Source: Bacilli bacterium (GTDB lineage: Bacteria; Bacillota_I; Bacilli_A; RF39; UBA660). From it: 64,000 nucleotides of DNA. Below are positions 8,700 through 61,463 of this stretch, piece by piece; within the stretch, counting starts at the first letter, position 1, and each line of letters begins with the position of its first letter. A program made the translations under genes and the position numbers. The notes under the pieces were generated by a model. The model was given only the letters and a program-made list of their open reading frames with translations. It did not search any database and was not told where the DNA came from. Location of the stretch: contig SKFZ01000010.1 in assembly GCA_007117695.1 (NCBI GenBank), positions 1,305 to 65,304 on the forward strand, written 5' to 3'.

Positions 8700-8740
8700 A
8701 AAACCTCCTATTATTATAATATCACAAAAAAAAGAATTTT

Positions 8741-9454
8741 TCACTCCTTAATTATAAACAAAAACCTTATTTTATTAGATAAATCTTCTTCTATTAGTAT
8801 TTTTGAATCCTTAAAATATTGTTTTGAAATTTTCAAAACACTGTCCCCTTGATCAAAGCCTATTTCGAAAGCAATAATAAACCTCTCCTTAACATACTTT
8901 CTAGCCTCACTTAAAATTTTTTCGTAAAAGTATAGTCCATCATTATCTGCAAATAAGGCTAGATGAGGTTCATTTTTTAAAACAACATCTTCAATTTCAC
9001 CAGACTTCGAAATATATGGGGGGTTACTAATTAAAACATCAAACTTGTCATCAATATTCTCAAAAATATCACTCAAAACAAACTTTATTTTTGCATTATT
9101 TAATTTACTATTTTCTTTTGCAACAAGCAAAGCATCACTTGAAATATCGCTTGCTACTACAACCGAATTTAATTCATTGAATAATGTAATAGCAATAGCA
9201 CCAGAACCAGTGCCTATATCCAAAACTTTAGGATTAATAAAATTCATTTTTTTAATGTAAGATATAGTTTTTTCCACTAATTGTTCTGTTTCAAACCTAG
9301 GAATCAAAACACTCTTATTAACTTTTAAGTTGTATCCATAAAAATCAACATTACCAACGATATATTGAACAGGCTCATTATTTTCTAACCTTCTCATGCC
9401 ATCTTCTAATTTATCCTTAGGTAAATGCTTTAATAAGTATTTTTTAGATTCCAC
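8741..9454 (-). CDS. prmC: Release-factor glutamine N5-methyltransferase PrmC/HemK
   Basis: NPPY motif (ISNPPYI) and SAM-binding motif DIGTGSG. It overlaps prfA by 11 nt, the conserved prfA-prmC arrangement. Confidence 0.85.
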   Translation of the reverse strand: MESKKYLLKHLPKDKLEDGMRRLENNEPVQYIVGNVDFYGYNLKVNKSVLIPRFETEQLVEKTISYIKKMNFINPKVLDIGTGSGAIAITLFNELNSVVVASDISSDALLVAKENSKLNNAKIKFVLSDIFENIDDKFDVLISNPPYISKSGEIEDVVLKNEPHLALFADNDGLYFYEKILSEARKYVKERFIIAFEIGFDQGDSVLKISKQYFKDSKILIEEDLSNKIRFLFIIKE

Positions 9455-10505: not shown

Positions 10506-10594
10506 TTTATCACCTTCATTTTTTTATTGCTTACAAGTCAATAATTAACGTTTTAAATAAGCCGCCTCTAAGTAAATATATTACCACAATAGTT

Positions 10595-10626
10595 ATATAA
10601 ATAAAAGAAGTAGCCAAACTACTTCT
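10595..10626 (-). terminator. Terminator hairpin after rpoE
   Basis: 8-bp stem agaagtag / ctacttct with loop ccaaa, followed by a T-rich run on the minus strand. Confidence 0.5.
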
Positions 10627-11056
10627 CTAATTCATCTTCGTCAACTATAGGCAAATCTTCAAATTCATCTTCTTCGACATCGTCTTCTAAGTCATCATCT
10701 AGCGAAAGATCGTCTTCAGTTTCTTCTTCACCTTCGTCTTCTTCAACTTCTTCAACATCATCTTCAGTTTTTTCTTCATCTTCATCTTCGTCGATGTCAT
10801 CATCTTTACTCAAGTTTCTCTCCCTAAGATCCCACTCAAAATTGTCTAGTAAAGTAAATCTCTTATCGATTGTTAAAGATGTATAAAAATCACCTATTTT
10901 TTCTTCAAACAAACCATCACTAAAATTTAAAAGTTTACAAACCTCTTTAAAAATTGCTGGTGTATTTAATGTTTGACCTTTTTCTTTTAAAATATGATAC
11001 GAAATATCTGTATATGACATCAATTCTAAATCTTCTCTTGAAATGTCTTTTAACAT
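10619..11056 (-). CDS. rpoE: RNA polymerase delta subunit RpoE
   Basis: N-terminal HARE-HTH-like domain followed by a roughly 70-aa poly-Asp/Glu acidic tail. This is diagnostic of Firmicute delta factor. Confidence 0.85.
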   Translation of the reverse strand: MLKDISREDLELMSYTDISYHILKEKGQTLNTPAIFKEVCKLLNFSDGLFEEKIGDFYTSLTIDKRFTLLDNFEWDLRERNLSKDDDIDEDEDEEKTEDDVEEVEEDEGEEETEDDLSLDDDLEDDVEEDEFEDLPIVDEDELEK

Positions 11057-11067
11057 AATATCCCCCC

Positions 11068-12744: not shown

Positions 12745-13097
12745 TCTACCACCTCATACTCTAATATAAACATAGTGTCTATATCTTTAGTATCTACTTT
12801 GTAATTAATCTTTAATAATCCTTCCTCTATAATAATTTCTTTAGTAATTATTTGCAAATTCAAAACTTGGTTTTCATCTATTAACAAATATTCACACTTA
12901 TTATTCGAAAAATCTAAAGTTATTTTATATTGTGGACTACTTCTAATAATTTTTATATTGTTATCTTTTAAAAAAATTTTATTTTTTATGTTCTTATCCT
13001 TAAAATTAATGACTTCTCCCACTTTGATTCCCGTACAAGACGATTTTTCAATTACTTTTTCTGCCTCTATCAAAGAGGTCTTAACTTTGACTTTCAT
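12735..13097 (-). CDS. DUF1934 (YwiB-like) small beta-barrel protein. It lies upstream of and overlaps argS, as ywiB-argS does in Bacillus.
   Basis: 120 aa. The position matches the conserved ywiB-argS synteny and the two genes overlap by 10 nt. Confidence 0.5.
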   Translation of the reverse strand: MKVKVKTSLIEAEKVIEKSSCTGIKVGEVINFKDKNIKNKIFLKDNNIKIIRSSPQYKITLDFSNNKCEYLLIDENQVLNLQIITKEIIIEEGLLKINYKVDTKDIDTMFILEYEVVEWN

Positions 13098-13149
13098 TAA
13101 AAACCTCCTTTTTTATGTAAGCATTATAACATACATTTTAAAAATATAA

Positions 13150-13180
13150 AACAAAAAAAAGCTTGTCACAAGCTTTTATT
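13150..13180. terminator. Hairpin terminator with an A-run on one side and a T-run on the other. Stem is aaaagcttgt/acaagctttt.
   Basis: 10-bp stem with flanking A and T runs, immediately after the stop of the 13176..13736 gene. Confidence 0.6.
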
Positions 13181-13736
13181 TAATTACTTTTAAAACATCC
13201 CCTGTTTTAAGCAAGTTAGCATTCGCATCATCAGTGTCTAAATGAAGTTCTAAAGTAAAACTTTCATCTACTTTTAAAAATACATTATTTAAAATCCCGC
13301 CTTTAATTCCAGGCGTTTCAACACTCACCTTTTCTTGTCCTTCAAGCCCATATTTTTCAACGTCTTTTGGGGTTAAATGAATATGCCTATTTGCAATTAT
13401 ACAACATTCTTCAACCGTAACTTCATTTGTTTCTGACACTATGGTTATTTTTTCTGCGTTTTTCAAATCACCTGAATCTCTTACCGGTGGGTTAATACCT
13501 AATTTATACGCATCTGTTTTAGAAATTTCTACTTGTGTATAATTTCTAATGGGCCCTAATACCCTAACATTTTTTATAATACCTTTGTCTGTTTTTATAT
13601 CCACAGTTTCATTACTTGCATAATGCCCTGTTTGAATTAAGTCTCTTTTCTTTGTCAATTCGCCTTCAAACAAAATTTCTAATATTTCCTCACTCAAATG
13701 TACATGCCTGTTTGAAACACCCAACTTCACTTCCAC
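13176..13736 (-). CDS. PduL/EutD-like phosphate propanoyl/acetyl-transferase family protein
   Basis: N-terminal GVSNRHVHLS motif and a second RHIHL repeat, characteristic of PduL. Confidence 0.55.
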   Translation of the reverse strand: MEVKLGVSNRHVHLSEEILEILFEGELTKKRDLIQTGHYASNETVDIKTDKGIIKNVRVLGPIRNYTQVEISKTDAYKLGINPPVRDSGDLKNAEKITIVSETNEVTVEECCIIANRHIHLTPKDVEKYGLEGQEKVSVETPGIKGGILNNVFLKVDESFTLELHLDTDDANANLLKTGDVLKVIK

Positions 13737-13786
13737 AATATCACTCTCCTAAATATAATTTTAACATGAAGTTAATATAAACACAA

Positions 13787-13815
13787 AAGTAATTGATAAC
13801 ATATAGTTATTTTGC
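13787..13815 (+). promoter_or_regulatory. Sigma-A type promoter for lemA: TTGATA, 17-nt spacer, TATAAT.
   Basis: Read directly from the sequence as ttgataacatatagttattttgctataat. Confidence 0.55.
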
Positions 13816-13838
13816 TATAATTTATTTAGGTGATTATA

Positions 13839-14387
13839 ATGATGGTTAGTATACTATTTTCTTTTATTTCTTTACTTGCGATATTAATAGTATTTGCACA
13901 AATATATAATAAATTTCAAAGCTTTTTAGTTAGGATCAATGAAGCAGAAGCTAGCATTGACTCAGTTCTTAGAAAAAGGTTTGATTTACTAAATAGATCA
14001 ATAAGCATTATAAGTGGACACATTGAGAAAGAAGAGGATAAAAAAAACATTCTTTCAATGATTGTTAAACTGAGAAGTAGAAAAATATCAAACTTCGAAT
14101 TAGATAGAGTGCTTTATGATGCTATTGGAGAATTCAATCAATACAAAGATTACTATGATGAACTTCATCATAACGAAAGTTTCGTTAAAATAGATGCTAG
14201 TTTGGAAGAAACAGAAATAGAAGTACATGCACTTAGAAAATATTATAATGATGTAATAACTGGATATAACAAACTTGTTAGAAAACTACCTTCTAACATA
14301 ATTGCTAAAATGTTCAAATACAAACTGAAACCATATTATGATGGGAAAAACATGGAAGATGACGACATACACGACTTTAAACTATAA
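13839..14387 (+). CDS. LemA family membrane protein
   Basis: N-terminal transmembrane segment, then the YN..L......ID.VLRKRFDLL block typical of LemA. The ATG at 13839 is preceded by AGGTGA. Confidence 0.65.
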   Translation: MMVSILFSFISLLAILIVFAQIYNKFQSFLVRINEAEASIDSVLRKRFDLLNRSISIISGHIEKEEDKKNILSMIVKLRSRKISNFELDRVLYDAIGEFNQYKDYYDELHHNESFVKIDASLEETEIEVHALRKYYNDVITGYNKLVRKLPSNIIAKMFKYKLKPYYDGKNMEDDDIHDFKL

Positions 14388-19975: not shown

Positions 19976-20560
19976 ATGAAATATCCAAACGGAATAAAAA
20001 AGGATAAGAAAAGAGAAACATGCTTTTCAAATAGAGGTATGAAGTTAGAATCTGAGCTAAATGACACTAACAAATATTACCTAGATTTAAATATCGCATG
20101 CATTCATAAAAAGCCTACACCAATTAAAGTTGTTGATGTATATTATAAGTCATGCAAAGAAGCGGTAATTACTAAAGCCTACTTTGAAAAACAATCGACA
20201 TTGGATTACAATGGAATATACAAAGGAAAATACATAGACTTCGAAGCGAAAGAAACAAAAAATTCTAATTATTTTCCATTAAAAAATATTCACACTCACC
20301 AAATCAAACATATGGAAAAAGTTATTCAAATGAATGGCATAACATTTTTAATTATAAGATTTTCATCTTTAAATTTGACATTTTATTTAGATGGTAGTAA
20401 ATTGTTATCGTTCATAGAAAAAAATGATAGAAAATCTATTCCAGTTTCTTACTTTAAAGAACACGGGATTCAAATATTAGATAAGTTGAGACCAACAATT
20501 GATTATATAAAAGTTATTGATGATCTCTACTTTAAAGGAGGTATTTATGAAAACAAATAA
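19976..20560 (+). CDS. recU: Holliday junction resolvase RecU
   Basis: Near-identical motif blocks to Bacillus RecU (YPNG..., SNRGM.LE..LN.TNKYY, IHKKPTP, YFEKQSTLDYNGIYKGKYIDFEAKETK). The recU-ponA synteny is present. Confidence 0.9.
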   Translation: MKYPNGIKKDKKRETCFSNRGMKLESELNDTNKYYLDLNIACIHKKPTPIKVVDVYYKSCKEAVITKAYFEKQSTLDYNGIYKGKYIDFEAKETKNSNYFPLKNIHTHQIKHMEKVIQMNGITFLIIRFSSLNLTFYLDGSKLLSFIEKNDRKSIPVSYFKEHGIQILDKLRPTIDYIKVIDDLYFKGGIYENK

Positions 20561-23500
20561 ATATAAAAAATATATGAAAAATTTTAATAGGAATATGAGT
20601 AAAGTGCTAAAGGATTTTGCAAACACTTTGAAAAGTGATAAGTTAGTCGCAACAATCTTTTTGATAAATATATTACTATTTTTAACAGTTAGTTTTTTTA
20701 CCACTGCTATTAATGGTATTATCGCAGTAGCACTAGTTGGTGGATTTAGTTTTTACTTAATAGGGAAAGGTAGAGCAAGTAATAAAAGTAATATTTCTAG
20801 AAGTAAAAATAAAAAGCAAGTGCAATATTCAAAAAAATCTAATGACAACATAAAAATTAATCGTAATAAGAAAAAAAATGTTAACACTAAAAGCAATAAA
20901 AAGAAAAATATTCAATCGAAAAAACCAATAAAAGATCAAAACAAATTTAAAGTTATTTTATCTAAAATACTTTCAAAAAACATTTTTAGAAAAATTGCTG
21001 CTGGTGTTTTAGTCCTAGGTATAATCGGTATGATTGGTGGATTTGTATTTATTGGTTATGTAGTTGCAACTGCACCAGAATTCGACCCAGATAACATGGT
21101 TAGAGCAGAGGCATCAATACTTTATGATGCTAATGGTGAAGAAATTACTAGACTTGGTGCTGAGCGAAGAGAAAAAATTACATTTGATGAATTGCCCGAT
21201 GTTTTAGTAGATGCTATTATCGCGACAGAAGATGCAAGATTCTTTCAACACAATGGAATTGATCTTCCAAGATTTACTAGAGCAGTAATCGGTCAAGCTA
21301 TGCGAAGAGATGCAGGTGGTGGTTCTACGTTAACTATGCAAGTTTCCAAAAATAACTATACCTCGGTAGTTGCATCTGGTTTTGAAGGTGTTACAAGAAA
21401 ATTTACAGATATATATATGTCTATTTTTGAAATAGAGAGAAATTATACAAAAGAAGAAATAATAGAGTTTTACATTAATCAACCTTATTTAGGCGGTGGT
21501 GCTTATGGAGTTGAACAAGCTAGCCAAACATACTTTAATAAAAGCGCTAGAGACTTAAATTTATCTGAAGCATCATTGATTGCAGGGCTTTTCCAAGCGC
21601 CTGGTGCCCATGATCCTTTTAATAACCCAGAGTCAGCAACTAGAAGAAGAAGCACTGTTTTGTACTTAATGGAGCGACACGGATATATTAGTAGTGAAGA
21701 AAGAGATATAGCAAACAGTATACCTGTTGAAGATTTATTAGCAACAAGAGCTCCAGGTGGAGCACATCAAGGATTTATAGATACTGTTGTTGAAGATGTA
21801 ATTAAAAAAACAGGTTTTGACCCTTATGTAGTATCTATGAACATATATACTACTATGGATAGAGAAATTCAAAGCCATATAAATGGTATAATGTCAGGTG
21901 AAAATTTCGAATGGGAAAATGATGTTGTAAATGCTGGAGTAGCAGTAGTTGATGTTAATAATGGTGCTATTAAAGGAATCGGTGCTGGAAGAAACAGAAG
22001 CGGACAAAGACAATTTAATACAGCAACTATGATAAAAAGGCATATAGGGTCAACTTCAAAACCCTTTTATGCTTATGCTCCAGGAATTGAATATAACAAT
22101 TGGTCTACTTATAGACTGTATGTAGATGAACCACACAGTTACACAAGTGGAACAGAAATTAGAAACTGGGATAGTAGGTTTGAAGGTTTACAAACAATGA
22201 GAACTACATTATCTAGATCAAGAAATATACCAGCTTTAAAAGCCTTTCAACAAAATACAAATAGAAACATCAGGGAAATGGCTACTGGACTAGGTCTTAG
22301 CCCAGAAATTTCTGGTAATATAGTGCATGAAGCACACGCGCTAGGTGGTTATAGTGGTGAGTCACCATTATCAATGGCTATTGCAAATGCTGCTTTCGCT
22401 AATGGAGGTTATTATGTTGAACCTCATGCTTTTACTAGGATAGAATTTAGAGAATCAAGAGAAGAATTTACATTTAGGCCGAAAAAAGAGCGTGTTATGA
22501 GTGAAGAAACTGCATATATGATTTCAGACATGCTTATAGATGCAGCAAACCATGGACTTGGTAGAAACTCTAATATAAACAATGCAGTTTATGGAGCTAA
22601 AACAGGGACATCAAACTTTGATAGAGAAACAATGAACAGATTTAATTTCCCAAGAGGAACAGTAAATGATAGATGGGTTGCTGGAACATCACCAGATTAT
22701 GGAATGGCCATTTGGTATGGTTATGATAGGGCTAATCCCGATTACTTTACTAATATTAATAATAGACAACACGCTATTTTATACCAAGCTTTAGGACGAG
22801 GGATTTTCAAAACAAACTCCAACTTCACTAAGCCATCATCAGTTGTTGAAGTACAAGTAGAGATGGAAAGTTGGCCAGCTATGCTACCTAGCTCAAATAC
22901 ACCAAGTAATATGATTGTAACTGAGTTATTCAAAGCTGGAACAGAGCCTACTGAAGTTTCAGATAGATACAAAGATTTAAATACTCCAACAAATTTAGAA
23001 ATAAATATTAATGGTAACACTGCTAACTTGAGTTGGGATAAAATTAGCACTCCAAAAGCATATGATAATGAATTTTTAGATAATTATTTTAGAACATTGT
23101 ATTTCAGTTCTTCTAGACGTAGTAGTGCTATAAGTGCTAGAAATTCCTACAACCAACAAAATATTGGAGATATTGGTTATAACATTTACGCTATTAACAA
23201 TGGCAATAGAACTTTGCTTGGATTTACCAAAGATAATAATTTCAGCACACAAATTCAAAATGGAACTGAAGCTTACGAAGTAACGGCAACATTCCAAATA
23301 TTCAAAAATGCAGAAAGTGATGCAATTAGAAAAGATGTAGATCGAAGCCAACTATCAATTATAGAAGCCGAAATTAATGGTAGTGAAGAAATATTTATAG
23401 AAATTGATAGCACCTTCATTGATCCAGGGGTTTCTGTAATTGAAAACAACGAAGATGTAACAGATCAAGCAACAATAGTTAAAGTTATTAGAAAAAATGG

Positions 23501-23612
23501 TCAACCAGTTAGCGAATTATTAACTGATGAACCAGGTGAATATAATATTAATTATGAAATAAAGTATAAAAATTTATCGAAAACACTAACTAGAAAAGTT
23601 ATTGTTCAATAA
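20547..23612 (+). CDS. ponA: Class A penicillin-binding protein PBP1A (glycosyltransferase plus transpeptidase) with an N-terminal extension
   Basis: GT51 motifs (EDARFFQHNGID, RKFTDIY) and transpeptidase motifs (STSKPF, SGT, KTGT). The AAAGGAGG Shine-Dalgarno sequence before the ATG at 20547 supports that start. It overlaps the recU 3' end by 14 nt. Confidence 0.9.
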   Translation: MKTNKYKKYMKNFNRNMSKVLKDFANTLKSDKLVATIFLINILLFLTVSFFTTAINGIIAVALVGGFSFYLIGKGRASNKSNISRSKNKKQVQYSKKSNDNIKINRNKKKNVNTKSNKKKNIQSKKPIKDQNKFKVILSKILSKNIFRKIAAGVLVLGIIGMIGGFVFIGYVVATAPEFDPDNMVRAEASILYDANGEEITRLGAERREKITFDELPDVLVDAIIATEDARFFQHNGIDLPRFTRAVIGQAMRRDAGGGSTLTMQVSKNNYTSVVASGFEGVTRKFTDIYMSIFEIERNYTKEEIIEFYINQPYLGGGAYGVEQASQTYFNKSARDLNLSEASLIAGLFQAPGAHDPFNNPESATRRRSTVLYLMERHGYISSEERDIANSIPVEDLLATRAPGGAHQGFIDTVVEDVIKKTGFDPYVVSMNIYTTMDREIQSHINGIMSGENFEWENDVVNAGVAVVDVNNGAIKGIGAGRNRSGQRQFNTATMIKRHIGSTSKPFYAYAPGIEYNNWSTYRLYVDEPHSYTSGTEIRNWDSRFEGLQTMRTTLSRSRNIPALKAFQQNTNRNIREMATGLGLSPEISGNIVHEAHALGGYSGESPLSMAIANAAFANGGYYVEPHAFTRIEFRESREEFTFRPKKERVMSEETAYMISDMLIDAANHGLGRNSNINNAVYGAKTGTSNFDRETMNRFNFPRGTVNDRWVAGTSPDYGMAIWYGYDRANPDYFTNINNRQHAILYQALGRGIFKTNSNFTKPSSVVEVQVEMESWPAMLPSSNTPSNMIVTELFKAGTEPTEVSDRYKDLNTPTNLEININGNTANLSWDKISTPKAYDNEFLDNYFRTLYFSSSRRSSAISARNSYNQQNIGDIGYNIYAINNGNRTLLGFTKDNNFSTQIQNGTEAYEVTATFQIFKNAESDAIRKDVDRSQLSIIEAEINGSEEIFIEIDSTFIDPGVSVIENNEDVTDQATIVKVIRKNGQPVSELLTDEPGEYNINYEIKYKNLSKTLTRKVIVQ

Positions 23613-39057: not shown

Positions 39058-39609
39058 TTATTCAATTTCATTATAAAGATAATATATAATTTCTTTATTC
39101 GTATCAAAACTAGAAGAACTCTCTACACAAGTTCTAATTGCTCTTTCAATACTTTCAGTACTTTTGTCATGTTCAAGCGATAATTTTTTATATAAATCTT
39201 GCATGCTATATTGATATTCTTTTAAATATAACACACTCTTTTTTATATATTCATATCCCTTTAACTTAGGATGGATGCCTTGCTTAATTAAAGCTTTACT
39301 TATTTCAATTTCTAGGGAATTAGATAAATAAGTCATGAACCTTTTTCGCAAATTTATAAACTTATTAGTAAACATCTTTTCATTTGTAATAATAACCTTA
39401 GCTTTCAAAAAATCACTAATTTTAGAAAAATTTCTATCAAAAGGAACTAAATCAATATCGACTATTATTATATCTGGTCGAAATAATTCATTAATAGATT
39501 CAATACTTTTTGTTGTTTCAACAACTTTTTCAACTTTAATACTTTTAGGAGAGACAGTTTTAATTACTTTTAAAAAATCGGGTCGCTTAGTTACTACTAC
39601 TATTTTCAT
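39058..39609 (-). CDS. Compact Spo0A-like transcriptional regulator (shortened receiver-like N-domain plus Spo0A_C DNA-binding domain)
   Basis: The C-terminal half aligns to the Spo0A effector domain: GIHPKLKGYEYIKKSVLYL against GVPAHIKGYLYLREAISMV, and TESIERAIRTCVE against ASRVERAIRHAIE. The N-terminal 90 aa is receiver-like (IVVVTKRPD, IIIVDIDL, VIITNE) but short. It overlaps the tpiA 3' end by 23 nt. Confidence 0.5.
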   Translation of the reverse strand: MKIVVVTKRPDFLKVIKTVSPKSIKVEKVVETTKSIESINELFRPDIIIVDIDLVPFDRNFSKISDFLKAKVIITNEKMFTNKFINLRKRFMTYLSNSLEIEISKALIKQGIHPKLKGYEYIKKSVLYLKEYQYSMQDLYKKLSLEHDKSTESIERAIRTCVESSSSFDTNKEIIYYLYNEIE

Positions 39610-40318
39610 AATTGTTATTTATAAATTCTACAATTTCAAAAAATTCATCTTTCAAAGATGCTCCACCAATCAAATAACCATCAATTACTGATATTTTTTC
39701 TAAAGTTGAAATATTCTCCTTATTAACACTTCCACCATATAAAACAGGAATGTTTTGATATCCGTACTTGTCTTTTAAAATAGATTTTATTAAATCTACA
39801 CTTTCAATGATTTCCTCATTTGTTGGTGTTATGTTAGTCCCTATTGACCAAACTGGCTCATATGCTACTACTAACTTATCCAAATTGTGAACATTATCAA
39901 GTGCTTCAGTTAATTGTTTTTCAATAAATTTCAATTTCTTTTTGCTAGTCTCTTTCTCGCCAACACAAAGTATAACACTTAAACCATTATCAATTACTGA
40001 GATTATTTTTTTGTTTATAATCTCATTTGTTTCATTAAAGTGTTCTCTTCTTTCACTATGCCCTATTATGACAGCACTTACACCGACACTTTTTGCTTGA
40101 TGAGCAGAAATTTCTCCGGTATATGCTCCTTCATTTTTAAAATAAACATTTTGAATACCTACTTTAAACTTGTTTTTCAAGAAAAAAGGTACATAAATGC
40201 TTGTCGGACAAACTAAAACATTTGAATAATTAGCCTTTGATTGCATAAGTTTAATATAAACATTAATTTTTTTAGCATCCAAATTCATTTTATGGTTTGC
40301 TACAATAAGCTTTTTCAC
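39587..40318 (-). CDS. tpiA: Triosephosphate isomerase
   Basis: 243 aa with active-site blocks (ANHKMN..., VIIGHSERR, AYEPVWSIGT, GGASLK). Confidence 0.9.
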   Translation of the reverse strand: MKKLIVANHKMNLDAKKINVYIKLMQSKANYSNVLVCPTSIYVPFFLKNKFKVGIQNVYFKNEGAYTGEISAHQAKSVGVSAVIIGHSERREHFNETNEIINKKIISVIDNGLSVILCVGEKETSKKKLKFIEKQLTEALDNVHNLDKLVVAYEPVWSIGTNITPTNEEIIESVDLIKSILKDKYGYQNIPVLYGGSVNKENISTLEKISVIDGYLIGGASLKDEFFEIVEFINNNYENSSSN

Positions 40319-40329
40319 TAAAATCCCCC

Positions 40330-41511
40330 TTACTTATTTAATACTTTTATTCCAGGGAGATCTTTTCCTTCAAGCAATTCTAAAGATGCCCCTCCTCCAG
40401 TTGAAATATGTGTTATTTTGTCTTTAAACCCTAAGTTTATGGCTGCAGAAGCCGTGTCGCCACCACCAACAATTATTGTTTTGCCAGTATCTACAATCCC
40501 TTTAAAAACTTCTTTTGTTCCTTTTGAAAAACTATCATGCTCAAAAACGCCTAAAGGCCCATTCCAAACAACTGTTTTACTTTCAGATAAAACTTCTAAA
40601 AAATTAGCTATAGTTTCATCACCAATATCAACACCCATCATATCCTCGTTTATGGAATCTGAACTTGCGTAATAACCTAATTCATCATCGATTGATTTAG
40701 CTAAAATGTTATCTACAGGCAAAATTATTTTATCAGAATACTTAACTAACATCTCTTTGCAAAAATCAATATATTCTTCTTCTAAAAGGGAATTCCCTAC
40801 TTCATAACCTTTTGCTTTTAAAAAAGTATATGCCATTCCTCCGCCGATAATAATATTATCTACTTTATGAACTAAATTTTCTATAACACCAATTTTATCA
40901 GAAACTTTTGCACCACCTAAAATTAGTGAAAACGGCTTTTCTGGACTTTCTAAAACCTTTTTAAAATTAATCAACTCTTTTTCAATTAAAAAACCTACAC
41001 CTACATCACTTAAGTTATTAGCGATTCCAACATTGGAAGCGTGGGCTCTATGAGCAGTACCAAATGCATCGTTTATGAATATTTCTCCAAGAGATGCCCA
41101 GTACTTGCCAAGTGTTTGATCATTTTTACTTTCAGCTTTTTCATTTAAATCTTCAAATCTTGTGTTTTCAACTAATAAAACATCCCTATCTTTCATATTA
41201 GAAATGCTATCTTCAAGTTTAATCCCTCTTGTTTCACCAGGAAAAGCAACTTGCTTATTCAAATAAAAGCTTAACTTCTCTGCAACAATCCCCAATGACA
41301 ACTTTTCTTTATCTTCAGGAGTTTTAACGCGCCCCAAATGCGAAAATATAATAACTTTAGCCCCTTGATCTAGTGCATAATTTATTGTTTTTAAGCTTTC
41401 TTTTAACCTGTTATCGTCTTTAATTTCACCATCTTTAATAGGAACGTTAAAATCACACCTAATTAACACTTTTTTTCCTTTTAATTCAAAATCTTTTATA
41501 GTTTTAATCAT
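40330..41511 (-). CDS. pgk: Phosphoglycerate kinase
   Basis: 393 aa with motifs RCDFNVP and GGGDTA...GGGASLE. Confidence 0.95.
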   Translation of the reverse strand: MIKTIKDFELKGKKVLIRCDFNVPIKDGEIKDDNRLKESLKTINYALDQGAKVIIFSHLGRVKTPEDKEKLSLGIVAEKLSFYLNKQVAFPGETRGIKLEDSISNMKDRDVLLVENTRFEDLNEKAESKNDQTLGKYWASLGEIFINDAFGTAHRAHASNVGIANNLSDVGVGFLIEKELINFKKVLESPEKPFSLILGGAKVSDKIGVIENLVHKVDNIIIGGGMAYTFLKAKGYEVGNSLLEEEYIDFCKEMLVKYSDKIILPVDNILAKSIDDELGYYASSDSINEDMMGVDIGDETIANFLEVLSESKTVVWNGPLGVFEHDSFSKGTKEVFKGIVDTGKTIIVGGGDTASAAINLGFKDKITHISTGGGASLELLEGKDLPGIKVLNK

Positions 41512-42512
41512 AAATCCTCCTGAAAATCAAATCTTTTAACATCTACTTGATAATTTCTATTTATTTCCTCGCTTGATAAAGAACGATTATATACTCTTAT
41601 TGAATGAATTTCGCCTTCAAAATAATTCGACCCATCTCCTATTATGAAATGATTATCATCACCAATTTGAATATAATCGCTTACCTCTTCGCTATTATCA
41701 TTCAAATATATAATAGAGTTATTTAATGAACCATTATTTATGAGTGCTAGCCTATAGGGCTCACCCATACTATATGATGAACTATATCCATGTGTATTAG
41801 ATGATCCATAATGCCAAAGAGGGTCAGTAGAAGAAAATTCTAAGTATGCAAAATCTCTAATACCTACATAAGACGTTGATGTTCCACTTTGCCTCAAAAC
41901 CAACTCTATGGTAAAGTCTTCACCTAGTAAACTTGGTTTTATTTTTCTTGCAGAATTTAAAACATCATTGCTATTTTCAAATTTTAAACTATTCACAGTC
42001 CATCTATCTTTATCGATTAATATTATATCATTATTAGAGCTGGTTAAATCTTGCATATAATTATTAAACCTAAAACCTTTTCCATTATTGTTTATGGCAT
42101 CATAATGAAGCACAAGCCCTTCTTGTTCATACATGTCAATTCCTGCTTTAAATCTTTCAAATGAATAATCTATCATTCCACTTGAAAGCCTTTCTGCTAC
42201 TATAGTAAAATTATTATTAACCGTGTCATCAGTTTCAGGATCAATCACCGTTTGCCTAATAAGACCTTTTTCTTCTAAAAACTTTATCGATATAAATGCT
42301 TTTCCTGATTCAACATTTAACTGTTCAAAATAATTTCTGTTTGACTCAATATATGATTCTGTTGCCATATACAAATTTTGCAAGTAGGTATCAAAGTCAT
42401 TTTGATTTGTTCTTCTGAATGTATTTATTATTGTTGGTACAGAAATTATAAGCACAATTGCAAGCACAACTATAACACCTAATAATTCAACTAATGTAAA
42501 ACCCTTTTTCAT
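41508..42512 (-). CDS. Prepilin-type (class III signal peptide) modular pilin-like protein with a C-terminal LamG/ConA-like lectin module
   Basis: The N-terminus MKKG|FTLVELLGVIVVLAIV carries a canonical prepilin peptidase site (G-1, F+1, E+5) and a hydrophobic helix. The C-terminal 200 aa ends with the Laminin_G_3-type motif GEIHSIRVYNRSLSSEEI. The stop overlaps the pgk ATG (ATGA). Confidence 0.6.
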   Translation of the reverse strand: MKKGFTLVELLGVIVVLAIVLIISVPTIINTFRRTNQNDFDTYLQNLYMATESYIESNRNYFEQLNVESGKAFISIKFLEEKGLIRQTVIDPETDDTVNNNFTIVAERLSSGMIDYSFERFKAGIDMYEQEGLVLHYDAINNNGKGFRFNNYMQDLTSSNNDIILIDKDRWTVNSLKFENSNDVLNSARKIKPSLLGEDFTIELVLRQSGTSTSYVGIRDFAYLEFSSTDPLWHYGSSNTHGYSSSYSMGEPYRLALINNGSLNNSIIYLNDNSEEVSDYIQIGDDNHFIIGDGSNYFEGEIHSIRVYNRSLSSEEINRNYQVDVKRFDFQEDL

Positions 42513-42535
42513 AATTCACCTACTTTACTAGTTTA

Positions 42536-42560
42536 AAAAGATTAGTTAAACTAATCTTTT
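42536..42560 (-). promoter_or_regulatory. AT-rich hairpin immediately after the gap stop codon. It could be an intra-operon attenuator or an RNA processing element.
   Basis: Near-perfect palindrome aaaagattagtt(a)aactaatctttt spanning the gap stop. Only about 46 nt separate gap from the pilin-like gene. Confidence 0.4.
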
Positions 42561-43566
42561 ATAGTTCGTTTATAAATTTTGCAAGTCTAACCATTTGAGC
42601 GCTATAGCCCATCTCATTATCATACCAAGCAACAACTTTAACTAGTTGCTTACCATCGACTTCCAATACTTCAGTTGAAAGACCATCAACCAAGCTTCCA
42701 TAAGTACTACTAATTACATCGCTTGAAACAATTGGGTCTTCTGTATATTTAAAAGTATCATTTTGGTTATTTTCAAATAATTTATTAATTTCTTCTTTCG
42801 AAGTGTTTTTGTTTAATTCAATTGTTAAATCAACTACTGAACCCGTAGTTGTTGGAACTCTAAGTGCACTACCATCTAGTTTTCCTTTTAATTCAGGTAT
42901 AACAAGCCCTATTGCCGCTGCTGCACCAGTCGAAGAAGGAACAATGTTAGCAGCACCTGCTCTTCCTCTTCTTGCTTTATGACCTTTTGAATGAGCCACA
43001 TCTAAAATCGTTTGATCATTAGTATAAGCATGAACTGTAGTCATAAAACCTTTCACTACTTTAAACTCCTTGTTTAACAAATCAACTACTGGAGCCAAAC
43101 AATTAGTTGTACAACTTGCCGCACTAATAACTTGTTCACTTCCGTCTAAAACATTTTCATTAACGCCGAATACAACAGTTTTTAAGTCTCCTTTTCCTGG
43201 TGCCGAAATAATTACCTTCTTAGCACCAGCTTCAATATGAGATTCTGCTTTTTCCTTTTTTGTAAATAGCCCCGTACATTCAAAAACTTGATCCACTTCT
43301 AATTCACCCCAAGGTAAATTTTTAGGGTCCATCTCGCTATAAACTTGTATTTTTCTACCATCCACTATAATGCTATCTTCTGTGTTTGATATAGAATCTT
43401 GTTTATATCCTCTATGACTAGTGTCATATTTTAAGAGATATGCTAATTGTGCTGCATCGGTTAAGTCGTTAATCGCTACAACTTCAAAATTAGGATCATC
43501 TTCCATAATTCTAAATACTAACCTTCCTATTCTTCCAAAACCATTAATTGCTACTTTAATTTTCAT
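42559..43566 (-). CDS. gap: Glyceraldehyde-3-phosphate dehydrogenase
   Basis: 335 aa with NGFGRIGR Rossmann motif and the ASCTTNCLAP active-site Cys. Confidence 0.95.
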   Translation of the reverse strand: MKIKVAINGFGRIGRLVFRIMEDDPNFEVVAINDLTDAAQLAYLLKYDTSHRGYKQDSISNTEDSIIVDGRKIQVYSEMDPKNLPWGELEVDQVFECTGLFTKKEKAESHIEAGAKKVIISAPGKGDLKTVVFGVNENVLDGSEQVISAASCTTNCLAPVVDLLNKEFKVVKGFMTTVHAYTNDQTILDVAHSKGHKARRGRAGAANIVPSSTGAAAAIGLVIPELKGKLDGSALRVPTTTGSVVDLTIELNKNTSKEEINKLFENNQNDTFKYTEDPIVSSDVISSTYGSLVDGLSTEVLEVDGKQLVKVVAWYDNEMGYSAQMVRLAKFINEL

Positions 43567-45220
43567 AAATACTTCCTCCTATAAATTCTCTTAATATTGA
43601 ATTTCCTGGCACCATCTCACTTGGAAGTGGCAAGAAATTTCTTAAAAATTTAAGCAACCTTATTGCTTCATGATACATTGGGTCTTCTTCTGAGACTGTA
43701 TATAAAAGCGGCTCCGCATAAATTTTTAAAACACTAATTTCATAAACTAACGATGAGTTTATTATTGCATCTACATCTCTTTGAAATGGGTAAATAAATA
43801 TTTCTTCGCCTTCTTTTATCTTCTCCCACATTTTAAGAGTATCGGATGCTGTATATCCTCGATATTTATTATCTCTTACAATTCTTCTTATCTTTCTAAC
43901 ATCTGTCGCATGAACTCTATTATGATTATCTACATTTATGTGAGTTAATGGACTAATAAATATTTTATATTTATTTTTATCTTCTATAGAGACAGTTAAT
44001 TGGTCATTCAATGCATGTAGTCCCTCTACAATAATAATATCATCATCTTTTATTTGAAGACATCTGTCTTTATATTCTCTTTCTCCTGTTAAAAAATTAT
44101 ATTCAGGGAGCAAAACAGTTTCCCCTTCTAATAATTTAGTCATATGCTTATTAAATAAGTCTATATCTATCGCATTTACAGACTCAAAGTCTAAGTTACC
44201 ATTTTTATCCCTAGGCGTATCTGCTCGATTATGGAAATAATCATCTATAGATATTTGATGAGTTCTAAGCCCTCTACTGTTTAAATATATTTCTAACCTT
44301 TTAGCAGTAGTAGTTTTACCACTGGATGTCGGACCTGCTAAAAGAACTAGCTTAATGTTATTATGATGCTTATATATTTTATCAGCAACTGTTCCAAGTT
44401 GTTCTTCATAATAAGTTTCGCAAACATTAACAAAGTTTTTATACTTTCCTTTAGATATTAATTTGTTAAGTTCTGGAGCATTACTTACTCCAATAAATTT
44501 TCCCCAATCAGTATACTTTATATAAGAATCAAACAATATTTTATTGTGGTTATAATCGCTAGTATATTCTGGGTTCTCATAGTCTGGATAATTAATTACA
44601 AACCCTCTCTCGCTAGTTTTAGCAAGTTTAAATTCATCTATAGCACCCGTAGATTCTGCTAAATCAATAAAAAAATAATCAAAAATATTATCTAACTTAA
44701 ACAATGTTACATAACTATTACTTATATATTTTAGTAAATCTACTTTGTCATTTTGTTTTTTCTTTCTAAAATACTCAATCGCCTCGACGCGGGCTACTTG
44801 CATCTTTTTAATAGGTAAGTCTTTTTTTATTATCTTATTTAACTCTTTTTCTAAATCATCCAACAACTTTTCAGTTATTACTATCCCAGGTATTTCACAA
44901 TAAACCCCCTTATCCATAGAGTGTTCTATAATTATGTCTCGATCTTCTCCGAGCATTTTCTTAACAGCTAATACTAACATAAAATGCAAAGTTCTTTCAT
45001 AAGCAATATTACCTATTTTAGATGACCTATCATAAAAATCAACTAATGAATCTGAATGAACCTTTTCACTTAGATGGCATAAGGTGTTTTTTAAAGAGGC
45101 TACTAATATAGGATATTCATATTTGCTTTGATAATCTTTTGCAACTTCTCTTAAACTAACAGAATGATTATATTCTTTGTACTCTAAGTTTTTATAGTTT
45201 ATTTTTATTTTGCCCTTCAT
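43556..45220 (-). CDS. Uridine kinase/phosphoribulokinase-family P-loop kinase fused to an N-terminal ThrRS-like (TGS/second additional domain) region
   Basis: P-loop AGPTSSGKTTTAKRL and Udk-like blocks (ISIDDYFHNR, IIIVEGLHALN). The N-terminal 260 aa resembles the threonyl-tRNA synthetase N-terminus. It overlaps the gap start by 11 nt. Confidence 0.65.
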   Translation of the reverse strand: MKGKIKINYKNLEYKEYNHSVSLREVAKDYQSKYEYPILVASLKNTLCHLSEKVHSDSLVDFYDRSSKIGNIAYERTLHFMLVLAVKKMLGEDRDIIIEHSMDKGVYCEIPGIVITEKLLDDLEKELNKIIKKDLPIKKMQVARVEAIEYFRKKKQNDKVDLLKYISNSYVTLFKLDNIFDYFFIDLAESTGAIDEFKLAKTSERGFVINYPDYENPEYTSDYNHNKILFDSYIKYTDWGKFIGVSNAPELNKLISKGKYKNFVNVCETYYEEQLGTVADKIYKHHNNIKLVLLAGPTSSGKTTTAKRLEIYLNSRGLRTHQISIDDYFHNRADTPRDKNGNLDFESVNAIDIDLFNKHMTKLLEGETVLLPEYNFLTGEREYKDRCLQIKDDDIIIVEGLHALNDQLTVSIEDKNKYKIFISPLTHINVDNHNRVHATDVRKIRRIVRDNKYRGYTASDTLKMWEKIKEGEEIFIYPFQRDVDAIINSSLVYEISVLKIYAEPLLYTVSEEDPMYHEAIRLLKFLRNFLPLPSEMVPGNSILREFIGGSIYEN

Positions 45221-45253
45221 ATTATAACCCCTATTCTATATTACAATTTTAGC

Positions 45254-45283
45254 AAAAAAAAAGTGTTTTGTCACACTTTTTTA
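45254..45283 (-). terminator. Rho-independent terminator after ezrA
   Basis: Stem aagtgt/acactt with loop tttgtc. It is flanked by an A9 run and a T6 run. Confidence 0.6.
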
Positions 45284-55200: not shown

Positions 55201-57512
<2,312 letters not shown>

Positions 57513-57559: not shown

Positions 57560-59161
57560 TTATTTGTTATGAATAGCAATACGAAAGCCTCTTGATGAAC
57601 TAGCACCACCATTGACAGCAGTAAAGGAAAATATACTAGCCCCAGGGTCCAAACTGTTAAGTCCACCCCTAACATACCAAGAATTATCATGGTCTCCTCT
57701 AGCAGCTACCATTAAAGCATCTTCCCAATTAAAAGTTTCCCCAAGAGCATCACCTAATTTACTATGTGAGAAGTCTTCTATGTCATCATTAAAATCATAC
57801 TTATCTATAAGAGGTTCTAAAGAAGGATTGTTTATATTTGGAGATAGTTCGCTAGCGGATTCTTCATCAGATGTAAAACCAGATTGCGATATTCTAAGTG
57901 ACTCATTTCCCGATGTTTTGACTCCAGCCATTACATATTCATAAGCCCCACCAGCCATATCATAAACACCATACACATTCCCTGTGGTACTTGTTTTTTG
58001 TCCATTTTCACTATTGTATTGGTTGCAATCAGAATTAGCTGGCCCAAGTGCCGAATCAGAAGCGCATCCAGTTAAAAACGAGTTATTTCTATTCGACCAT
58101 ATTTGTTCGTCACTACCGTATACAGACCTTGATAAATACACTACTGCTCCCCAGTCTATATTTCTTAAAAGCCTTGACTCAGCCTCATCTCCATTCAATC
58201 CATATATATTACCATGTTCATTAAAATCTCTTGCAACAACGAAGGCTTTAGATAACTCAATTCCTCTCCACATAATACTATTTGGTTTTATTATTGCGCT
58301 ATCAAGTTCAGGCGAACTAACAACACCTTCAGCAGCAGTAGTAGCACCTTCAAATCCGGTTGTATATTTTCCAACCCATAACCCATTTAATTCATCTTCA
58401 CCAAAGCTAAATGCTGGATGAGTTAACCATTCATTTTCTAAATTTCCAAGTGATTTTTCGGTTGATATTCCTTCAAAAATCACATCAAACATTACATCTT
58501 CATATGCCATTGCTGAAAAACTTGAGTTTAAAATTCTATACCTATATCTTGGTATCCAAACAAAGTATGCTAATACATCTTCGTCATCAACTTCCTCACC
58601 AGGTGAAATGTTTTGATAATAACCCCTGCTAGTAGCTGTTAACAAAGCAGCATTGGCCCACATTTTATCACTGTAGTCATACCAACGCGAATTAAGGTCC
58701 GCTTTTACCCATGTATCTTGTTCTTCATCATACATTATTGGTAGCATACCCTCGACTAGTTCAGGTCTTGAAGCACCTGATGGATCTATATATCCACACT
58801 TGCCTTGGTTTAATAGTTCATACTCAATATTATCGATTTCATTTATTTTTATTTTAACTTCTTTTAACTCTGATATTTCTTCATTTGTGTTTGGATCTAA
58901 AAGTGGACTTGGTAATATCCCTGAATTAAAAAGTTGACGAAGAGTTATACAATACTCCCTGTCTTCAATCAACGGATATTGATCTCTGTTATCGTCCATA
59001 TATCTCCTTGTAGAAGCGTAAATAAGCTTTAAAGTATCATCACCGACACTTGTTCTTATAGTTCTAATTTGATTAATAATAGGCGGAACTACTATGAGTG
59101 AAATAATTCCTAAAATAACAATAACTCCTAGTAACTCGACTAGTGTAAACCCTTTTTTCAT
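57560..59161 (-). CDS. Prepilin-type (class III signal peptide) modular pilin-like protein with a C-terminal FGE-sulfatase/C-type-lectin-like module
   Basis: The N-terminus MKKG|FTLVELLGVIVILGIISLIVV is a canonical prepilin leader. The first 15 aa are identical to the gap-pgk pilin-like protein. The C-terminal third shows FGE-sulfatase (SUMF1-like) signature blocks: GNVYGVYDMAGGAYEYV (compare GNVWEW), RGGLNSL and a terminal RGFRIA. This assignment is tentative. Confidence 0.55.
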   Translation of the reverse strand: MKKGFTLVELLGVIVILGIISLIVVPPIINQIRTIRTSVGDDTLKLIYASTRRYMDDNRDQYPLIEDREYCITLRQLFNSGILPSPLLDPNTNEEISELKEVKIKINEIDNIEYELLNQGKCGYIDPSGASRPELVEGMLPIMYDEEQDTWVKADLNSRWYDYSDKMWANAALLTATSRGYYQNISPGEEVDDEDVLAYFVWIPRYRYRILNSSFSAMAYEDVMFDVIFEGISTEKSLGNLENEWLTHPAFSFGEDELNGLWVGKYTTGFEGATTAAEGVVSSPELDSAIIKPNSIMWRGIELSKAFVVARDFNEHGNIYGLNGDEAESRLLRNIDWGAVVYLSRSVYGSDEQIWSNRNNSFLTGCASDSALGPANSDCNQYNSENGQKTSTTGNVYGVYDMAGGAYEYVMAGVKTSGNESLRISQSGFTSDEESASELSPNINNPSLEPLIDKYDFNDDIEDFSHSKLGDALGETFNWEDALMVAARGDHDNSWYVRGGLNSLDPGASIFSFTAVNGGASSSRGFRIAIHNK

Positions 59162-59381: not shown

Positions 59382-61463
59382 TTACTCCTTCCTAATACTT
59401 TTATGGCCTTTCATAATGCTCTTGACACCATATGGGTGTGGAAAGGCAATACTTAAAATACTTTTATTTATAGCAACAACAATTCCTTCACCAAAAGTTA
59501 TGTGTGTTACATTATCACCAATTTTATATTCAATGCTAGAATCAATATTTCTTGCATTACTTATAGAAACATCGTTTTCAGAATTCAAACTTTCTAAAAA
59601 TTCATCACCAATTTCTTCTATGAAACGACTTTGTGGGCTGTACGTGTCCATCCCAAAAATACGTCTTCTCTTAGCATTTAATAAAAACAACTCTTTTTTA
59701 GCTCTAGTTATAGCAACATAACATAATCTTCTTTCTTCTTCTAACTGCTCATTATCCATCAAAGAATTTTTATGTGGAAAAATTGTTTCCTCAAGCCCTA
59801 TTACAAACACGTAATCAAACTCTAACCCTTTAGCAGAATGAACAGTCATTAAAGTTACTACATCTCTTTTATCTTTATATTCTTCGATGTCCGCAACTAA
59901 ACTAATCTCTTCTAAAAACTCATCTAACATTATTGTACCATATCTTTCTTCAAAAGACTTAGTAATAGATTTAAACTCCTCTAAATTTTCAATCCTTATT
60001 TCAGCATCTAATGTTTTTTCGTTTTTTAATTCTTGTCTCATACCACTTTTGTCTAAAACCTCTTCTACTAATTCGGTAATTGAAAGTTTAGGTTTTTTTG
60101 CAATTATATCGTTAATTATTTTTTTGAATTCAAGCTCTTTTCCGCTTTCAATTGAATCAAACAAACTAGAATTTAAATCATTAGCACGGCTTTGGATTTT
60201 TTGAATTGTTTTTAACCCAATTTTTCTTTTTGGAACGTTTATTATCCTTTGTAAACTAATATCATCATTACTATTGTGAATAAGCTTCAAATAGGCAATT
60301 AGATCTTTTATTTCTTTCCTTTGATAAAAGTAAAATCCTCCGACAACTTTATATGGAATATTTTCCGCTAGCAAAACTTCCTCAATGTTTCTAGATTGAG
60401 CGTTTGTTCTATATAAAATAGCAATATTATTTCTAGTTACACCATCCTCTAACAAACTTTTAATCTTCGCTTTAACAAAAAAAGCCTCATCTTTTTCATC
60501 TACTAGCCTTTTATATTTTATTTTTACCCCTTCATCCTGTCTTGTCCAAAGCTTTTTGTCTTTTCTTTGCTTATTATTTTTAATAACCGCATTAGCAGCT
60601 TCTAAAATGTTTTTAGTAGATCTATAATTTTCTTCAAGCATAATAACTTCTGAATTAGCATAATCTTTTTCAAAATTTAAAATATTGCGATAATTTGATC
60701 CTCTAAATGAATAAATTGACTGGTTCTCATCACCCACTACACAAATATTTTTATATTTAGCGCTAATCATCTTAGTTAAAATATATTGAGCCTCGTTTGT
60801 ATCCTGATATTCATCTATTAATACATAATTAAATCTTTCTTGGTAGTTTTTCAAAACTTCTTTATTCTCATTAAATAGTTTTATAGGCATAATTAGCAAA
60901 TCATCAAAATCAAAAGAATTATTTACTTTTAATTTTTTTTGATAAGACTTATACACTTTGTAAACTAACTCTTCATATTCATTTGTTACAAACTTTTCAT
61001 ATTCCTCAGGCGTTATTAATTCATTTTTTGCACTACTTATTTTTGATTTAATACCTCTTGGATTATATTGTTTTGGGTCAAGATTCATTTCTTTAATAAT
61101 TTTTTTCACAACACTTAATGAATCATCACTATCAAAAATTGTAAAGTTCTTTTTATATTCCAACTTTTCATAATTTTCTTTAATAATGCTAAGCCCAAAA
61201 GAATGGAAGGTTGATATTTGCATCTCATAAGCACTTGGGCCTATCAAATTTATAATTCGCTCTTTCATCTCTTTCGCTGCTTTATTAGTAAAAGTTATCG
61301 CCAATATATTATATGGATCGATACCTAATTCTTTTATCATATATGCTATTCTAGTAGTTAGAACTCTAGTTTTACCACTTCCTGCACCAGCAAGTACCAA
61401 AAGTGGTCCTTCAGTTTTAGTAACTGCTTTTTTTTGTACTTCGTTTAATCCTTCTAAATTCAT
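59382..61463 (-). CDS. pcrA: ATP-dependent DNA helicase PcrA (UvrD family)
   Basis: Walker A AGAGSGKT and UvrD motifs (DEYQDTN, VGDENQSIY, TVHSAKGLE). 693 aa. Confidence 0.9.
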   Translation of the reverse strand: MNLEGLNEVQKKAVTKTEGPLLVLAGAGSGKTRVLTTRIAYMIKELGIDPYNILAITFTNKAAKEMKERIINLIGPSAYEMQISTFHSFGLSIIKENYEKLEYKKNFTIFDSDDSLSVVKKIIKEMNLDPKQYNPRGIKSKISSAKNELITPEEYEKFVTNEYEELVYKVYKSYQKKLKVNNSFDFDDLLIMPIKLFNENKEVLKNYQERFNYVLIDEYQDTNEAQYILTKMISAKYKNICVVGDENQSIYSFRGSNYRNILNFEKDYANSEVIMLEENYRSTKNILEAANAVIKNNKQRKDKKLWTRQDEGVKIKYKRLVDEKDEAFFVKAKIKSLLEDGVTRNNIAILYRTNAQSRNIEEVLLAENIPYKVVGGFYFYQRKEIKDLIAYLKLIHNSNDDISLQRIINVPKRKIGLKTIQKIQSRANDLNSSLFDSIESGKELEFKKIINDIIAKKPKLSITELVEEVLDKSGMRQELKNEKTLDAEIRIENLEEFKSITKSFEERYGTIMLDEFLEEISLVADIEEYKDKRDVVTLMTVHSAKGLEFDYVFVIGLEETIFPHKNSLMDNEQLEEERRLCYVAITRAKKELFLLNAKRRRIFGMDTYSPQSRFIEEIGDEFLESLNSENDVSISNARNIDSSIEYKIGDNVTHITFGEGIVVAINKSILSIAFPHPYGVKSIMKGHKSIRKE

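Follow-up and report, generated by a model that had tools for sequence, protein, structure and literature searches.

A modular type IV pilin-like protein with a LamG lectin module, encoded directly ahead of pgk in uncultured Bacilli

The DNA analyzed here (the window) is a stretch of 64 kb with 30% GC on contig SKFZ01000010.1 from a Bacilli bacterium. On its minus strand, at 41508..42512, an open reading frame (ORF) of 334 codons plus stop encodes a protein in which a prepilin leader is combined with a C-terminal LamG-type module, and this gene is directly followed by pgk, the gene for phosphoglycerate kinase. The explanation that we favor, with moderate confidence, is that the product is a modular type IV pilin-like protein, encoded by the leader gene of the pgk operon, that displays a lectin on a filament.

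Domain architecture of the prepilin-type LamG protein

The 334-residue ORF is a genuine gene, because it is long for a genome of 30% GC, its GC content at third codon positions (GC3) is like that of its neighbors, and it is intact in many relatives. The translation starts with MKKGFTLVELLGVIV (in a longer read, MKKGFTLVELLGVIVVLAIVLIISVP) and ends with GEIHSIRVYNRSLSSEEINRNYQVDVKRFDFQEDL. The leader peptide MKKG (42501..42512, minus) precedes FTLVELLGVIVVLAIVLIISVP, in which Phe+1, Glu+5, and the hydrophobic stretch are those of a class III signal, and cleavage by a prepilin peptidase is predicted between Gly4 and Phe5. Pfam N_methyl (PF07963) matches residues 2–23 above its cutoff (23.4 bits, cutoff 21.2), as does the NCBIfam model for the GFxxxE prepilin domain, TIGR02532 (19.8 bits, cutoff 16.3), and sub-threshold similarity to the N-termini of PilA, GspG, and ComGC/D/E was seen in NCBIfam. 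At the other end, Pfam Laminin_G_3 (PF13385) matches residues 258–318 with 27.7 bits, which is borderline against the cutoff of 27.6, and the PF13385 motif IHSIRVYNRSLSSEEI closes the LamG/ConA-like module. Precomputed PF13385 matches were present on several orthologues, and the fold evidence described below is concordant with them.

An AlphaFold2 model built on ten orthologues reached a mean pLDDT of 79.7, the pilin module having 86.5. The model consists of a helix (residues 7–57), a small sheet (71–119), a low-confidence linker (approximately 121–132), a beta-sandwich (133–308), and a C-terminal helix. The pilin module, with its alpha-1 helix followed by the small beta-sheet, is thus placed at residues 5 to approximately 120 (42153..42500, minus), and the LamG/ConA-like lectin module, as delimited from PF13385, AlphaFold2, Foldseek, and the profile comparison with the Protein Data Bank (PDB), at residues approximately 130–330 (41523..42125, minus).

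In the Foldseek search against the PDB, the model matched the lectin domain of Trypanosoma cruzi trans-sialidase (E 9e-10), the Hc region of botulinum neurotoxin, and the Streptococcus sanguinis pilin PilC (7oa8; E 8e-8 over 299 aligned columns), and the isolated pilin module gave no significant match. A family profile of 38 sequences, searched against PDB sequences, assigned both ends of the protein. Profile positions 6–68 matched mature type IV pilins from their Phe1 onward, namely Myxococcus xanthus PilA (E 2e-9) and S. sanguinis PilE1 (E 7e-9), together with Geobacter and Thermus pilins and GspG. Positions 138–326 matched the LamG protein 4qvs, which carries an S-layer domain (E 7e-19), as well as pentraxins, and the LamG part also matched sialidase-associated modules of the CBM40 type (4c1w, E 1e-7; 6er2; 1sli).

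Phe+1, Thr+2, and Glu+5 are invariant in the 38 family members. The invariance of F+1 and E+5 points to a requirement of filament assembly and processing, which would go beyond what a membrane anchor needs. In the model, the additional ConA/LamG-like module follows the pilin module at the C-terminus across a short linker, an arrangement of the PilC type. These results support, from sequence and model, a modular pilin-like protein in which a class III signal and a pilin-like module precede a LamG/ConA-like module at the C-terminus. A first-pass annotation of the window had read the ORF in this way from its letters, and Pfam, NCBIfam, AlphaFold2, and Foldseek agree with that reading; the PF13385 match and the LamG-type beta-sandwich at residues 133–308 are what it had asked of a domain search and of a structure prediction.

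Linkage to pgk and its transcription

The genomic place of the gene was looked up for an identical protein (P0001) on an independent ENA/NCBI record and for ten family members with 27–57% identity, and was confirmed by tblastn. The independent record carries the identical protein in the identical gene order, and pgk lies directly downstream of the pilin-LamG gene in 11 of 11 cases. Eight cases have the two genes −4 to 12 nt apart, two have spacings of 78 and 106 nt, and one (locus L085) has 590 nt between them. PGK is 57–79% identical across these loci (the pilin, 27–57%), and the arrangement therefore spans considerable divergence. The gene upstream varies: it is gap, which encodes GAPDH, in the window and in L002, L003, L085, L151, and L152, dpaB in L088, rmuC with overlapping ends in L089, and a yutD-like gene in L156.

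Conservation of the linkage concerns pgk and not the gap–pgk pair. The position between gap and pgk that the first-pass annotation described is correct for the window. Its premise that these two genes are adjacent in essentially all bacteria was overstated, since pgk does not adjoin gap in L088, L089, and L156, and gap is present without a following pgk in L036. The comparison of gap–pgk synteny that it proposed thus bore out the downstream side in every case and the upstream side in some relatives only.

Searched against metagenomes, a four-sequence LamG alignment matched nothing closer than LamG proteins of at most 31% identity, none of which adjoined pgk, and a scan of genome contigs with the leader-peptide pattern gave at least 80 generic prepilin loci, with no orthologue among the matches listed. 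Literature searches turned up no pilin gene described as a fixed part of a pgk or gap operon, and the pilin–pgk linkage appears to be undescribed.

At the junction of the two genes in the window (41508..41521, minus), the TGA of the pilin gene and the ATG of pgk (40330..41511, minus; Pfam PGK, E 1e-142) share the ATGA at 41508..41511, as claimed at first pass, and the pgk Shine-Dalgarno sequence AGGAGG (41516..41521), as read from the sequence, lies inside the last pilin codons. The pilin gene has its own Shine-Dalgarno sequence, AGGTGA (42516..42521, minus), which is kept as AGGTGA or TAGGTG in relatives. No terminator-like site was found between the pilin gene and pgk in the window. These features support a tight coupling of the pilin ORF to pgk, which is predicted to be translational.

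Upstream, the spacer of 46 nt between gap (42559..43566, minus; Pfam Gp_dh_N/Gp_dh_C) and the pilin gene contains, in this order, a hairpin, a short U-run, and the pilin Shine-Dalgarno sequence AGGTGA. The hairpin is the perfect 25-nt structure noted at first pass (42536..42560, minus): its 11 bp and UUA loop are preceded by an A-tract and followed by a U-tract, it overlaps the gap stop codon, and it folds with −8.9 kcal/mol (z = −3.4 against dinucleotide shuffles). It is 100% identical between the window and L002 despite differing flanks. We consider that it is probably a weak intrinsic terminator or attenuator. Each of the relatives with an intergenic region 5′ of the pilin gene has its own hairpin with a T-run (−5.3 to −9.4 kcal/mol, z −2.7 to −6.3).

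In seven relatives (L003, L085, L088, L149, L150, L151, and L152), the hairpin is followed by TTGwAA-N17-TAAAAT (or TATACT), resembling a sigma-70 promoter, and then by the Shine-Dalgarno sequence, whereas in the 46–48 nt spacers of the window and L002 a consensus scan of the minus strand revealed no consensus promoter and the hairpin stands alone. The claim that there is no room for a promoter thus applies to the window and L002 and fails in those seven relatives. Because a terminator and a promoter lie directly 5′ of the gene in them, the ancestral order would be terminator, promoter, pilin-LamG, and pgk; the pilin gene would then head the pgk operon and would not have been inserted into a gap transcript. 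On the same comparison, the window would be a compacted derivative, from which the promoter region and two envelope genes have gone from this position.

The two envelope genes, one flippase-like (TIGR00374/PF03706) and one encoding a GT4 glycosyltransferase, lie downstream of pgk in seven of the nine arrangements with sequence there, the window and L002 being the exceptions; in those two, tblastn detected no homologue of either gene (in the window, over its whole 64 kb). They are found between pgk and tpiA or spo0A (L003, 8186..10435; L152, 7322..9557; also L085, L088, L089, and L156), and tpiA and/or spo0A come after the GT4 gene. The best NCBIfam match of the GT4 protein is alpha-monoglucosyl-diacylglycerol synthase (NF049988), over the full length, with 299–313 bits, which is below the equivalog cutoff of 400 bits.

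The remaining genes of the window unit are, on the 5′ side, a udk/PRK-like gene (43556..45220, minus; 554 aa, Pfam PRK and NCBIfam udk-like), which shares 11 nt (43556..43566) at its 3′ end with the gap start and which probably opens the transcription unit, and, on the 3′ side, tpiA (39587..40318, minus; Pfam TIM). The best promoter-like site 5′ of the unit, GTGACA-17-TAAAAT with a TG extension (45246..45274, minus), comes from the consensus scan only and is not evidence of function, promoter-like sites overall not being in excess in that scan (56 found, 46.8 ± 7.5 expected). The internal promoter-like sites of the unit are weak (9/12 matches) and occur at background frequency. A hand-found TTGCAA-17-TAAAAG overlapping the gap stop was not relied upon, as it is without the conserved final T. 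If pgk is needed in this fermentative organism, the lack of a consensus promoter implies that its transcription in the window would cross the hairpin and the pilin ORF, unless a non-consensus promoter is used.

Several further observations concern the same region. The N-terminal region of the 554-residue kinase resembles threonyl-tRNA synthetase, and the udk-like/gap pair is kept in L002, L003, L036, L085, and L152, so that gap is coupled to an unusual upstream gene and not to cggR. A Spo0A-like ORF (39058..39609, minus; 183 aa) overlaps the tpiA end and has the Spo0A_C DNA-binding domain only, without the receiver; L085, L152, and L156 encode a 253-residue Spo0A with Response_reg, and the sporulation regulator of the window organism may be degenerate. 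In L085, the pilin gene encodes 565 aa with two LamG stretches, and the spacer between it and pgk (7699..8288) also holds a small hydrophobic ORF, MKEIYMEYIVLILILPYLLKEDE.

Proposed filament display and alternative explanations

We propose that a prepilin peptidase encoded elsewhere in the genome would cut the protein after Gly4, and that the mature protein would leave the membrane to join a type IV filament, in its body or at its tip, with its lectin module binding extracellular glycans. The assembly machine would likewise be encoded elsewhere; a Tad-type set adjoins a similar pilin gene in one uncultured Bacilli metagenome-assembled genome (MAG; L035), which may or may not be related to the window genome. 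The window pilin gene would most likely be transcribed by read-through of the weak hairpin, from a promoter 5′ of the udk-like gene, and pgk would be translated by ribosomes that have just left the pilin ORF, with the Shine-Dalgarno sequence inside that ORF and the ATGA overlap. If pgk is coupled to the pilin ORF in this way, the pilin mRNA would be at least as frequent as the pgk mRNA. Most economically, the pairing would be kept because the pgk promoter sits 5′ of the pilin gene, so that separation would silence pgk, and the shared promoter would also give the surface lectin a steady expression that follows growth. The first-pass annotation had expected expression together with the central glycolytic genes; the tight coupling to pgk agrees with this, and the varying upstream partner and the separation in L085 do not.

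Several observations weigh against filament display from a pgk leader gene. No gene for a T2SSE ATPase or a T2SSF platform protein was found in the 64-kb window or at the pgk-linked loci by a regex search and by phmmer with Romboutsia PilB and PilC and the L035 Tad proteins as queries, and no Peptidase_A24 was found among the multi-pass membrane ORFs of the window, for which Pfam gave DUF975, Rce1-like, YitT, FtsX, and others; the pgk-linked loci have no prepilin peptidase gene either. Among the at least 80 prepilin loci listed, a single locus from uncultured Bacilli adjoins a machine. The Pfam LamG match of the window protein sits at threshold and spans its last 60 residues only. Ala replaces Gly at −1 in some family members, and the motif is lost in P0174. 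In L085, the pilin gene is followed by 590 nt (7699..8288) with a GC-containing terminator hairpin and, for pgk, an extended −10 promoter, TGCTATAAT, which suggests that the two genes are transcriptionally separated there and that co-transcription would be common, not obligatory. In addition, an expression level like that of pgk would be unusual for a bulky minor pilin located at a tip.

The distribution of prepilin genes bears on the first alternative, in which the protein is a membrane-anchored surface lectin that is never polymerized, its prepilin N-terminus serving as an anchor (processed or not) or as a short pseudopilus stub. By motif count, 85 sequences contained 120 prepilin-leader ORFs of about 100–1573 aa. 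A T2SSE ATPase lies within approximately 8 kb at seven prepilin loci, six of them from other phyla or cultured clostridia and one from a Bacilli MAG, the sheep-gut L035, with the order era-recO-(334-residue GFTLVE pilin)-tadE-tadE-tadZ-tadA-tadB-tadC-murC. At this locus (7992..14069), a leader of the T4a style stands beside a Tad-type machine, in which tadA is the T2SSE gene and two genes are T2SSF. In these uncultured Bacilli MAGs, the prepilin genes typically lie away from machinery and beside housekeeping genes. The window itself has a second prepilin-type ORF (57560..59161, minus; 533 aa), which starts with the identical leader, MKKGFTLVELLGVIV, as noted at first pass. It lies between pcrA (59382..61463) and ligA (55533..57512), 15 kb off, and is the sole other pilin gene of the window, so that the two genes do not form a pil locus.

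Two side observations belong here. Beyond its leader, the 533-residue protein has no significant Pfam match in its C-terminal approximately 410 aa (an FGE-sulfatase hint only, E 0.027), and its relatives, with 25–31% identity, are found in the Bacilli MAG loci L009, L050, L007, and L033, none of them adjoining pcrA or ligA. L006 (3777..7004 and 1117..2175) has three prepilin-type genes, for 133, 138, and 350 aa, directly after obg and away from any machinery, and a reverse-transcriptase ORF (RVT_1) approximately 3 kb upstream.

The absence of pilus machinery near any pgk-linked gene and the many dispersed prepilin-leader ORFs beside housekeeping genes (obg in L006; pcrA and ligA on either side of the second prepilin-type ORF of the window) favor such an unpolymerized anchor. 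A high constitutive expression would likewise suit an abundant surface protein over a tip pilin, and an archaeal precedent exists in the sugar-binding proteins of the Sulfolobus bindosome, which have class III signal peptides (PMC3047682). However, the invariant F+1 and E+5 are more than an anchor needs, the bindosome itself requires an assembly system like PilB/PilC, and the module here is a LamG lectin, not the substrate-binding protein of an ABC transporter. We regard the anchor as unlikely, if the most serious competitor to filament display.

Another explanation places the protein in an envelope glycolipid module, in which its lectin would bind or organize a glycolipid of the glucosyl-diacylglycerol type or a lipoteichoic-acid anchor, as synthesized by the GT4 protein and exported by the flippase-like one, or in which these two proteins would glycosylate the pilin. 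The recurrence of both genes after pgk speaks for it, as does the envelope nature of all three products, whose genes stand amid those of glycolysis. The window and L002, however, keep the pilin–pgk pair without either gene at this position, the GT4 score is under the curated cutoff of its family, no oligosaccharyltransferase is present, and the whole argument is adjacency. We assign this explanation a small probability.

The pairing with pgk, mostly also with the GT4 and flippase genes, might also mark a functional unit, that is, a surface structure resembling the bindosome and dependent on filament machinery, whose synthesis is tied translationally to glycolytic flux. Such a unit may take two forms, in which glycan capture is tied to glycolysis or the protein organizes the organism's own glycolipid made by the GT4/flippase pair. 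This, too, we think rather improbable.

Finally, a chimeric assembly join or a functionless, decaying remnant of a mobile insertion, suggested by the metagenome-assembly source, by a gene foreign to glycolysis, and by the poorly conserved LamG core, is dismissed as having a negligible chance, as the identical arrangement occurs on an independent record and the same order in ten other lineages, which are diverged and stem from different samples and assemblers, the ORF is everywhere undisrupted and equals its neighbors in GC3, the Shine-Dalgarno sequence and the coupling junction are conserved, and no repeats or mobile-element genes flank the pilin gene in the window. The synteny in independent assemblies likewise disposes of the pseudogene and of the chimeric join, which the first-pass annotation had named as what would refute it.

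Family breadth and comparison with known systems

When the family profile was searched against 1.84 billion representative proteins, 614 matches were obtained at E ≤ 1e-30. Approximately 60 of the best 150 were full-length proteins of 320–370 aa with the same two-part architecture, and the rest of these 150 were LamG repeats in giant surface proteins. The family of approximately 340 aa thus amounts to about 60 clusters at 50% identity among the best 150 profile matches, and it is without a name in the source databases for the clusters checked. The giants P0048, P0050, P0055, and P0075, with 4,000–7,400 aa and up to 24 LamG repeats, are presumably surface adhesins. One cluster of the family, P0099, occurs in 142 blocks of the collection, on contigs of up to 0.6 Mb, and therefore belongs to a common organism.

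The related prepilin loci come mostly from MAGs labeled "uncultured Bacilli bacterium" from rabbit, Hadza human, sheep, and other guts. The relatives encode SASP, dpaAB, yunB, and a full-length spo0A, and the window encodes a class A penicillin-binding protein, FtsX, and DivIC, indicating that these organisms are walled monoderms and that the relatives are spore-forming. The class A penicillin-binding protein (20517..23612, plus) has transglycosylase and transpeptidase domains and a C-terminal bacterial surface Ig-like domain. The same domain occurs in the TadB-like protein of L035 and, as PF16403, in several of the prepilin relatives.

Modular pilins have been studied inside pilus loci, and here a whole family of approximately 340-residue prepilin-LamG proteins is detached from any pilus locus, in uncultured gut Bacilli and with one member in well over 100 public assemblies. 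The pgk-linked gene can serve as a simple genomic marker for the clade and as a case in which the tying of surface-lectin expression to that of a glycolytic gene can be put to the test, and the dispersed prepilin-leader ORFs may hint at a broad use of the prepilin pathway for surface display in these bacteria. If the pairing reflects promoter sharing only, it would be a clean example of an operon architecture that freezes an unrelated gene beside an essential one. If it reflects a functional unit, type IV pilin-like proteins would gain a new functional class, and surface display would be connected to central metabolism in a novel way.

The glycolytic operon of Bacillus subtilis has the order cggR-gapA-pgk-tpiA-pgm-eno. 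As in B. subtilis, gap, pgk, and tpiA of the window have the same orientation, and the stem-loop after gap could raise gap over the downstream genes. In contrast to B. subtilis, the window is without cggR, the udk-like gene overlaps the gap start, the pilin gene stands between gap and pgk, and tpiA is followed by the spo0A-like gene and not by pgm and eno; the relatives in addition carry the flippase-like and GT4 genes between pgk and tpiA. The window therefore does not have a contiguous gap-pgk-tpiA series under one promoter with a CggR-type regulator, its genes being co-oriented, interrupted by the pilin gene, and without cggR.

Two other systems provide analogies and are not families that include the window protein. 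The bindosome of Sulfolobus solfataricus (PMC3047682) is alike in that surface carbohydrate-binding proteins with a pilin-type signal peptide are tied to sugar utilization. It is, however, archaeal, composed of substrate-binding proteins of ABC transporters, and assembled by BasEF, whereas the module of the window protein is a LamG lectin and its gene has neither transporter genes nor Bas-like ones in its vicinity; with neither the substrate-binding fold nor an adjacent ABC transporter or PilB/PilC-like gene, it falls outside the bindosome. The Tad-like cluster of TANB77 (PMC11680825) also comes from uncultured low-GC gut Firmicutes and combines pilin-like proteins with a TadZ/TadA/TadB-C machine, as does L035. 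Its pilins, however, are 143–236 aa long, clustered with the machine, and without a LamG module or a link to pgk.

The closest parallel is S. sanguinis PilC (7OA7/7OA8), the ConA-like lectin module of which binds sialylated glycans and heparin oligosaccharides (PMC9934059). In both proteins, a class III signal peptide leads into a short pilin module (a predicted one in the window protein), which a linker joins to a beta-sandwich of the ConA/LamG type, and both come from monoderms. On the other hand, the window protein is 10–11% identical to PilC, with no detectable sequence homology outside the leader, and is without the intervening Ig-like module, and whereas the PilC gene belongs to a 22-kb pil locus with machinery and the partner PilA, the window gene is an orphan before pgk, for whose product we infer glycan binding, the only lead being the resemblance of the module to those of the sialidase-associated CBM40 type.

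In a survey of more than 1,200 modular pilins with 264 architectures, PF13385 is among the frequent added modules (PMC8179133; Raynaud et al., 2021), and the combination of IPR012902 with PF13385 catalogued there is exactly the two-part architecture of the window protein. The survey catalogues architectures only, and a family fixed to pgk is not described in it. Of the unusualness that had been claimed at first pass, the architecture thus has no share, a prepilin part with PF13385 being listed among common modular pilins, whereas the placement, for which the literature offered no counterpart, retains it. Overall, by its architecture the protein is an ordinary modular pilin, and what is new is its conserved operon context.

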